The position numbers were made by a program, and so were the translations under genes. From Escherichia coli (lineage in GTDB: Bacteria > Pseudomonadota > Gammaproteobacteria > Enterobacterales > Enterobacteriaceae), in the NCBI RefSeq assembly GCF_003334385.1, contig NZ_QOWN01000034.1: 47,554 bases of DNA. One strand, 5' to 3'. Below the pieces are notes generated by a model. That model saw nothing but the letters and a program-made list of their open reading frames with translations, made no database searches and was not told where the DNA came from. Within the stretch, counting starts at the first letter, position 1, and each line of letters opens with the position of its first letter. Of this stretch, positions 47,031 through 47,190 are shown piece by piece.

Positions 47031-47190
47031 AATTGTTGTCTCTTTGATTATGTACAATCATATGTACAAAGAAAAATTCATGCCGCTGATTGTACATTTT
47101 GGAGGTATCAGAGCATAGCAGAACATGATCAGTAGGTGTATTTGTAGCCAAAGAACATTTGTACATGCAGCAATCTTTGCTCTATTGACA

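Follow-up and report, generated by a model that had tools for sequence, protein, structure and literature searches.

TGTACA repeats upstream of prfC in Escherichia coli as probable arm-type sites of a prophage integrase

Arm-type sites are a textbook part of phage attachment sites. In phage lambda, the sites P1, P2 and P′1-P′3 present a short motif, unlike the core, on both arms of the phage attachment site (attP), where it is read by the N-terminal domain of the integrase (Int). The present analysis concerns four copies of the hexamer TGTACA found upstream of prfC in Escherichia coli contig NZ_QOWN01000034.1, near the end of a stretch of 47,554 nucleotides (hereafter, the window). These repeats, or boxes, are probably the P-arm arm-type sites of the heterobivalent tyrosine integrase (407 aa) of a prophage of the cdtI/2H10/Ayreon type. 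The system resembles lambda in that Int would be heterobivalent and its sites are split between attL and attR after integration. It differs in the arm-binding domain (PF13356/DUF4102 here, the lambda-type PF09003 there), in the motif, the number of sites and the orientation of int, and in the length of attP, which is about 420 bp here versus about 240 bp in lambda; no IHF consensus was detected here.

Other described relatives are the KplE1 (CPS-53) and P4 elements. In KplE1, the arm-type site P′1 of IntS overlaps the -10 element of PintS and mediates negative autoregulation, and the same arrangement has been described for P4 (PMC2951348). The prfC element shares with the KplE1 IntS/TorI and P4 Int/Vis systems a P4-like Int and an int gene beside attL in the same outward orientation, which in KplE1 and P4 places the int promoter inside the recombination region (PMC2951348). 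However, KplE1 and P4 target tRNA genes whereas the element described here targets the 5′ end of prfC, and the motif and Int sequences differ. Moreover, one arm here provides the expression signals of the interrupted host gene.

The 5′ end of prfC is also the target of integrative conjugative elements (ICEs) belonging to the SXT/R391 group, in which the core of R997 reads ATTATTTCCCACCC. SXT is reported to supply prfC with a new N-terminus and a new promoter (PMC8409611, citing Hochhut & Waldor 1999). In addition, prfC is a documented integration site of Stx phages (PMC10132054), and the integrase of the cdt1 phage has been grouped with IntSXT in a prfC-targeting "SXT cluster" characterized by a DUF4102 arm-binding domain (PMC8138268, Smyshlyaev et al. 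2021). The ICE and phage integrases thus fall in the same cluster, and R997 likewise carries a TGTACA-N6-TGTACA pair before the ATG of its element-borne prfC 5′ end (prfC′). The ICEs differ in that the Int of R997 is only 39 % identical and its boxes are all direct repeats (GTGTACAAA). Their int gene is not located beside attP but is expressed from Ps003 under SetCD control, convergent with xis (PMC4344509), and autoregulation through promoter overlap is therefore not applicable to them.

The closest relatives are the phages cdtI (NC_009514), 2H10 (NC_049950) and Ayreon (MF807953), all known as free phages, and many Stx1a and Stx2c phages, including prophages at prfC (LC7278xx). Their Ints are 97-99 % identical to the one considered here and their attP sites are virtually identical. 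No substantive difference separates the locus from cdtI, 2H10 and Ayreon: the window holds the attR half in a lysogen, and the cargo on the P-arm side varies, with a DinI-like gene here, in 2H10 and in cdtI and other open reading frames in Ayreon. A scan of viral contigs with an Int alignment returned only copies of at least 97 % identity, and tblastn of diverged Ints against the phage collection gave no closer free phage. In Pfam, Int comprises PF13356 (Arm-DNA-bind_3, the DUF4102 family; residues 3-90, E 5e-16), a central PF22022 and a catalytic PF00589 domain, and the presence of an arm-binding domain leads one to expect arm-type sites somewhere in attP. The protein combines the DUF4102 domain with the prfC 5′ target and is 97.5 % identical to the Int of the cdt1 phage, whose placement follows PMC8138268. 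The element has the same Int, attP and core as cdtI, 2H10 and Ayreon, with lambdoid structural genes adjacent. As far as sequence can tell, the integrase is a member of the SXT cluster of the IntSXT/P4-like group and belongs to a cdtI/2H10/Ayreon-type lambdoid prophage.

The prophage junction and the rebuilt attP

Positions are window coordinates unless a locus label (L001, L004, L005 etc.) is given, and K-12 serves as the reference for native prfC. The gene is read from the minus strand, and its start codon occupies 47028-47030. Among 5426 complete E. coli genomes searched, those of the K-12 type cease to match at about 47010, inside prfC, and the alignment with K-12 is near-identical through 46982 and divergent to the right. 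Because identity with K-12 ends at 46982, the insertion junction lies within the prfC coding sequence, at 46969-46982, and not in the yjjG-prfC spacer; the preliminary description had seen the repeats next to a putative insertion junction, and its placing of the context is corrected accordingly. These 14 bp form the att core (Table 1). They correspond to about codons 17-21 of prfC, which code for the GTPase P-loop, and occur exactly twice in the 83 kb that span the whole prophage and its flanks, once per prophage end, with the attL copy at L004 13172-13185. The prophage has integrated by recombination at this core inside the 5′ end of prfC, and the crossover lies within the 14 bp. The 16 N-terminal residues encoded by the phage replace 17 native ones, giving a prfC product of 528 aa versus 529. 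On these comparisons, all DNA to the right of the core, including the whole upstream region of prfC, is assigned to the phage. The arrangement is common: the P arm adjoins prfC at a minimum of 95 % identity in 700 of the 5426 complete genomes (~13 %). A perfect inverted repeat of 7 bp, AATTATT-tctcacccc-AATAATT (N9; L005 about 2269-2291), encloses the core in attP. One half of it falls at 46977-46983, and only the left half is phage-derived at attR. The two halves are plausible candidates for core-type Int sites.

Table 1. Coordinates of the att module and adjoining features in the window
Feature	Position	Strand	Sequence and remarks
att core, 14 bp	46969..46982	-	ATTATTTCTCACCC in prfC sense; common to attB (K-12), attR (window) and attL
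Phage-borne prfC 5′ replacement, codons 1-16	46983..47030	-	K-12/attL comparison; same segment in attP of the free phages
P arm of attP (phage side of attR), four-box att module	46983..47195	-	Identical or nearly so in 2H10, Ayreon and cdtI
Two-box module, 22 nt (boxes 2 and 1)	47047..47068	-	TGTACATATGATTGTACATAAT; longest direct repeat in attP
Box 1 (proximal), TGTACA	47051..47056	.	gatTGTACAtaat in prfC sense; pattern search
Box 2, TGTACA	47063..47068	.	cttTGTACAtatg in prfC sense; 12 bp from Box 1
Box 3, TGTACA	47091..47096	.	aaaaTGTACAatcagc in prfC sense; flank orientation opposite to boxes 1 and 2
Box 4 (distal), TGTACA	47160..47165	.	gcaTGTACAaatg in prfC sense; ~180 bp from core
Two LexA-type boxes	47191-47206, 47219-47234		CTGTTTATTTATACAG, CTGTATGCAAACACAG; immediately outside att module, upstream of DinI-like gene
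DinI-like gene, 82 aa	47250-47498	+	NCBIfam DinI, E 2.5e-20, 72.7 bits, below the curated cut-off of 111
Intrinsic-terminator-like hairpin	47510-47529		3′ of DinI-like gene

The hexamer is palindromic, and the orientation of each box was read from the flanking bases. Counting upstream from the prfC′ start codon, Box 1 starts at 26 nt, with 21 nt between the end of TGTACATAAT and the ATG, and boxes 3 and 4 are found at 66 and 135 bp. On the plus strand, the heptamer TGTACAA occupies 47051-47057 and 47063-47069 and its inverse TTGTACA occupies 47090-47096 and 47159-47165. The preliminary description had identified both motifs and the copy at 47063. Its remaining positions were displaced by one base (47050, which is the start of ATGTACAA, as well as 47091 and 47158), and the 13-bp spacing it gave for the direct repeat is in fact 12 bp from start to start.

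Its view that the repeats form a real cluster is upheld by the pattern search and by shuffling. TGTACA occurs seven times across the whole window, as against 7.4 expected from shuffles, and four of the seven fall inside 115 bp. Clusters of four or more within 120 bp were absent from all 2000 mononucleotide-shuffled versions of the window, nine of which contained three. It had also named two observations that would speak against the repeats, a motif widespread in the genome and a motif native to K-12, and neither was made. Eight of the 13 TGTACA in the 83 kb sit in the two att arms, and K-12 has none in 5.1 kb around prfC, nor any match with up to one mismatch in the yjjG-prfC spacer. A native spacer element was rejected as a candidate, since K-12 homology stops inside prfC and K-12 lacks the motif.

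The far end of the element could be followed in DETEC-S792 (NZ_CP116067.1), in which the last 655 bases of the window (46900-47554) are identical. There, a lambdoid prophage of ~50 kb occupies the DNA beyond the equivalent of the window end and carries tail fibre, tail, head, terminase and lysis genes, a Q antiterminator and cI/cro. At its other extremity a 407-aa tyrosine integrase adjoins yjjG and is preceded by a 69-nt native prfC 5′ fragment, so that attL reads, in order, native prfC 5′ fragment, 14-mer, phage DNA and int. The int gene (L004 13416-14639, plus strand) adjoins attL and is transcribed away from it. The check proposed in the preliminary description, a search for the motif at the other end of the element, brought to light four further boxes at L004 13350-13406, at -66, -54, -45 and -15 relative to the int ATG, in the arrangement ccTGTACAtatgctTGTACAtaaTGTACAaaac-N22-ttTGTACAaggtgagtaATG.

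When the reverse complement of 46969-47260 is joined to L004 13186-13425, the product reproduces the intact attP of 2H10, Ayreon and cdtI almost base for base, with eight boxes. Four are found in the P arm, about -80 to -190 from the core, and four in the P′ arm, about +170 to +225 and directly upstream of int, so that core and boxes together span about 420 bp. The core (ATTATTTCTCACCC) is unrelated in sequence to the boxes. In Ayreon, which has different cargo on the P-arm side, homology starts at ~47195, about 30 bp outside Box 4, and this position is taken as the edge of the att module because the Ayreon homology begins there. All four window boxes fall inside the module common to Ayreon, 2H10 and cdtI. 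The 22-nt two-box module recurs with 21 of 22 positions in the P′ arm as TGTACATATGCTTGTACATAAT, 264 bp away and just upstream of int. Its general form is TGTACATATG[A/C]TTGTACATAAT, and each arm has one copy, whose end is separated by 21 nt from the start codon of prfC′ in the P arm and by 44 nt from that of int in the P′ arm.

Several side observations concern the same region. The P′ arm contains a second repeat family, TTCAAAATCCTTTCAGTTAA and TTGAAAATTCTTTCATGTAA together with a third CTTTCA (L004 13240-13345; L005 2306-2325 and 2381-2400), and the CCTTTCA part of it is also present in the Salmonella and Pantoea arms. These CTTTCA-containing repeats may serve as binding sites of the excisionase or of some other accessory protein. 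In DETEC-S792, an IS1 element and several early-region genes with frameshifts or truncations lie just downstream of int (L004 14926-18926). No excisionase is annotated in this int-proximal region, in contrast to 2H10 and cdtI, and excision may be defective in this copy of the prophage. Window positions 26900-46899 compared with L001 1-20000 at a fixed offset gave 11542 mismatches, and the window therefore has indels relative to DETEC-S792 or is another strain.

Boxes across integrase relatives

A graded series of Int homologues was examined in genomic context. It includes elements from Salmonella (84 %), Pantoea stewartii (83 %), Xenorhabdus (65 %), Serratia (61 %), Vibrio (52 %) and Shewanella (51 %), each of them located at the 5′ end of prfC, and three elements at other sites (Int 57-56 %). 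The diverged lysogens (Salmonella, Xenorhabdus, Serratia, Vibrio and Shewanella) were compared on the int side, over 10 kb around int. The arm sequence drifts in all homologues, beyond alignability in the distant ones, while one to four exact TGTACA stay within 81 bp of the int start. The usual pattern on this side is TGTACA-N6-TGTACAtaa together with a box beside the ribosome-binding site, and TGTACATAAT is kept before int in most relatives. Over eleven loci, 32 boxes were counted in 11 x 120 bp upstream of int versus seven in about 115 kb elsewhere, an enrichment of roughly 400-fold. Boxes are also present in elements integrated outside prfC (L097, L105 and, in Morganella, L107). The native prfC upstream regions of K-12 and Serratia silvae and the host sides of six attL sites carry no box.

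Comparisons of the P arm were obtained by scanning genome contigs with a pattern of the phage-type prfC′ coding segment, which does not presuppose the boxes. Only four loci were recovered, including one new P arm (Trabulsiella guamensis), one native control and one attL. In the Trabulsiella arm the three proximal boxes and their spacing are kept and flanks differ; Box 3 is kept with its flanks. In that locus (L101, reverse complement, 12400-12620), the P arm, prfC′ start and core are joined to non-prfC DNA after ...CCCACCCGGA, which could be a rearranged remnant or a secondary-site insertion. At L095 2640-2800, the "host" side of an attL already has a prfC′ 5′ end of the phage type together with one box (AAAATGTACAAT) and adjoins a PLD-family gene, with Box 3 and its flanks kept; this is apparently the remnant P arm of an earlier or tandem prfC insertion.

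Distant intact attP sites were taken from circular records in the plasmid collection. Morganella pMM1680-3, whose Int is 50 % identical and which has the same DinI-attP-int layout, carries TGTACATAAT in one arm and TGTACA-N6-TGTACAtaa before int. In R997, TGTACAaatccgTGTACA lies 24 nt before the start codon of its own prfC′, and two more pairs are located in the xis-side arm. A TGTACA-N6-TGTACA pair therefore stands 20-26 nt before an element-borne prfC′ ATG in the window, in Trabulsiella and in R997, and because R997 has an equivalent pair, a 12-bp-spaced pair upstream of the transplanted prfC start is common to phage and ICE. When oriented, the boxes give the asymmetric consensus TGTACA-W-A, with A at +7 in 41 of 45.

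The identity of the protein that reads the boxes can be approached through a sister clade (Enterobacter p16773_4 and Edwardsiella pFL6-60, L108 and L109; Int 44-46 %) that has TGTCCA/TGGACA boxes in place of TGTACA. These occur in both arms, including a 12-bp-spaced pair, with five or six in 400 bp versus zero or one elsewhere. Nine Int columns are invariant in the 12 TGTACA-type proteins and switched in both TGTCCA-type proteins, and six of the nine (L3, K14, S29, Q41, R52 and D54) belong to the arm-binding domain, which makes up 22 % of the protein. This domain is also the best-conserved part of Int in the TGTACA group; for instance, R997 is 57 % identical there versus 34 % elsewhere. The motif thus tracks the Int lineage from 84 % to 39 % identity, independent of core specificity, and constitutes a repeated non-core motif on both attP arms that is split between attL and attR in the lysogen. 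Conservation, co-variation and the divergence of the excisionases (discussed below), taken together, point to the N-terminal arm-binding domain of Int as the reader of the boxes.

In both TGTCCA-type elements a lone exact TGTACA (tgcaTGTACAgtcaacc) is kept in the P′ arm (L108 1388 and L109 1388). Their attP (1100-1500 in L108 and L109) bears a gene start encoding MKNIRNFSIIAHID, which we take to be the N-terminus of LepA (EF4); the best BLAST hit of the 45 nt is lepA, a weak one (E 0.2). The TGTACA and TGTCCA clades both appear to target and replace the P-loop-coding 5′ end of a translational GTPase gene.

If the boxes are arm-type sites, the N-terminal domain of Int would dock on them while its core-binding and catalytic domains hold the core sites. 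Int would thereby bridge arms and core to form an intasome for integration and, with an HTH_17-type excisionase, for excision.

Promoters and rival readings

With its entire upstream region made of phage DNA, prfC in the lysogen has to be transcribed from a promoter in the P arm, and the direction of int transcription, away from attL, requires an int promoter among the P′ boxes. The geometry is like that of KplE1 and P4, in that int adjoins attL and the boxes extend from -66 to -15 from the ATG. On the model of IntS in KplE1 and Int in P4, the P′ boxes would overlap the int promoter and Int would repress its own gene, and the proximal P-arm pair would be located where the phage-supplied prfC promoter must be. 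Boxes 1 and 2 plausibly overlap that promoter. A candidate -10 element, CATAAT, is found inside the 22-nt module, accompanied by a poor -35 in both arms. That the module (TGTACATATGMTTGTACATAAT) is an Int-repressible promoter cassette carried twice, once for int and once for the interrupted host gene, is an unlikely but conceivable extension of this scheme.

Recombination directionality factors (RDFs) typically have their sites on one arm, as in lambda, KplE1 and P4. An alternative to Int as reader is such a factor, a 64-aa HTH_17/AlpA-like excisionase that would repress Pint and, during excision, bend the arms. Almost every relative has an excisionase gene alongside int and these proteins are mutually homologous, close direct repeats such as the 12-bp pair resemble Xis-type arrays, and in KplE1 and P4 the RDF too binds attL and represses int (PMC2951348). 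Yet the boxes occupy both arms in both flank orientations, and the RDF diverges faster than they do, with 34-42 % identity where the Int arm domain retains 69-74 %. R997 Xis has no detectable similarity to the RDF of the E. coli phage although the same hexamer is used, the switches that accompany the change from TGTACA to TGTCCA concentrate in the arm-binding domain of Int, and the CTTTCA-containing 20-mers of the P′ arm offer an alternative candidate RDF site. Recognition by an RDF accordingly seems very improbable.

A purely transcriptional role, with the boxes serving prfC′, int or both as parts of promoters or as operators bound by a phage repressor, by LexA or by some host factor, would account for the duplication of TGTACATATGMTTGTACATAAT upstream of prfC′ and int with its possible -10, for the retention of TGTACATAAT before int in most relatives, and for the prfC promoter that SXT is reported to supply (PMC8409611). 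It is nevertheless very improbable. The cI-cro region (L004 22732-22828) contains no TGTACA, the nearest being at 21790 inside a pseudogene, and the boxes accompany Int amid differing regulators in lambdoid phages, an SXT/R391 ICE with SetR and genomic islands; the operators of a phage regulator offered as an option in the preliminary description therefore find no support. A simple promoter leaves unexplained boxes 3 and 4, which lie 66 and 135 bp upstream with opposite flank orientation. The motif is unlike the LexA box (CTGT-N8-ACAG), real LexA boxes being found further out, at 47191-47234, and one would not expect the site of a host factor to change to TGTCCA together with the Int arm domain. 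An operator for a phage repressor or LexA was rejected on the same two grounds, the lack of TGTACA in the cI-cro intergenic region and the separate LexA-type boxes. As for a chance build-up of an AT-rich hexamer in AT-rich (34 % GC) intergenic DNA, the AT-rich arm and a window total close to the shuffle expectation would fit it, but the shuffles, the second four-box cluster at the other att arm and the persistence of boxes across about 15 diverged elements exclude it. What the preliminary description had also suggested, integrase arm-type sites, is the reading favoured by the boxes at both ends, the rebuilt attP, the PF13356 domain of Int, the comparative footprint and the co-variation.

Some points weigh against arm-type sites read by Int, or against the regulatory scheme built on them. 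The protein that reads the boxes is proposed from comparison of sequences, and an invariant 6-bp palindromic core is unusual for a monomeric arm-binding domain, even with the asymmetric flanks of TGTACA-W-A. The excisionase candidates form one homologous family co-inherited with Int, and because of this RDF homology is only partly informative in deciding between RDF and Int. P-arm comparisons are few, being limited to the E. coli family, Trabulsiella, R997, Morganella and a single remnant. Box 4 (47160) has no counterpart in the Trabulsiella arm and is on that account less certain than the other three. The IHF consensus WATCAANNNNTTR gave no match in attP with up to one mismatch. On the regulatory side, consensus and relaxed sigma-70 scans of both arms gave weak candidates only for the prfC′ and int promoters, and for this reason promoter overlap and control of prfC by Int are put forward as hypotheses.

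Neighbouring cargo and significance

Outside the att module, the DinI-like gene with its two LexA-type boxes (Table 1) looks like an SOS-inducible moron at the prophage end. A DinI-like gene also lies just outside the P arm of attP in 2H10 (L005 1741-1989), Morganella (L107 810-1094) and Enterobacter (L108 157-423). These neighbours span three Int clades (100 %, 50 % and 46 % identity), which suggests that the position of this cargo next to attP is conserved. When 46800-47554 was searched for structured RNA, Rfam gave no match with an E value up to 1.

The feature in the window is the attR half of a known and widespread phage attP. No published description of arm sites was found for the Int cluster of the cdtI phage and SXT, the original SXT and cdtI papers lying outside this search; "TGTACA" with "arm-type" retrieved no paper, and hits for TGTACA with attP and integrase were unrelated. 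The analysis provides a testable arm-site motif, TGTACA-W-A, and an attP map for a medically relevant group of integrases, which mobilizes Stx1a, Stx2c and Cdt-I phages as well as SXT/R391 resistance ICEs. The switch from TGTACA to TGTCCA in the apparently lepA-targeting clade nominates S29, Q41, R52 and D54 in the DUF4102 domain as candidate specificity residues, which could help in the reprogramming of such integrases.

For the host, about one in eight complete E. coli genomes would express prfC from phage-supplied signals interleaved with the boxes, which raises the question of whether recombination proteins modulate RF3 expression. Should the two-box module be an Int-repressible promoter cassette, RF3 expression would be tied to the amount of a phage or ICE recombinase in the ~13 % of E. 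coli genomes with this arm, with an analogous link in hosts of SXT/R391 elements, and it could change upon induction, excision or superinfection.

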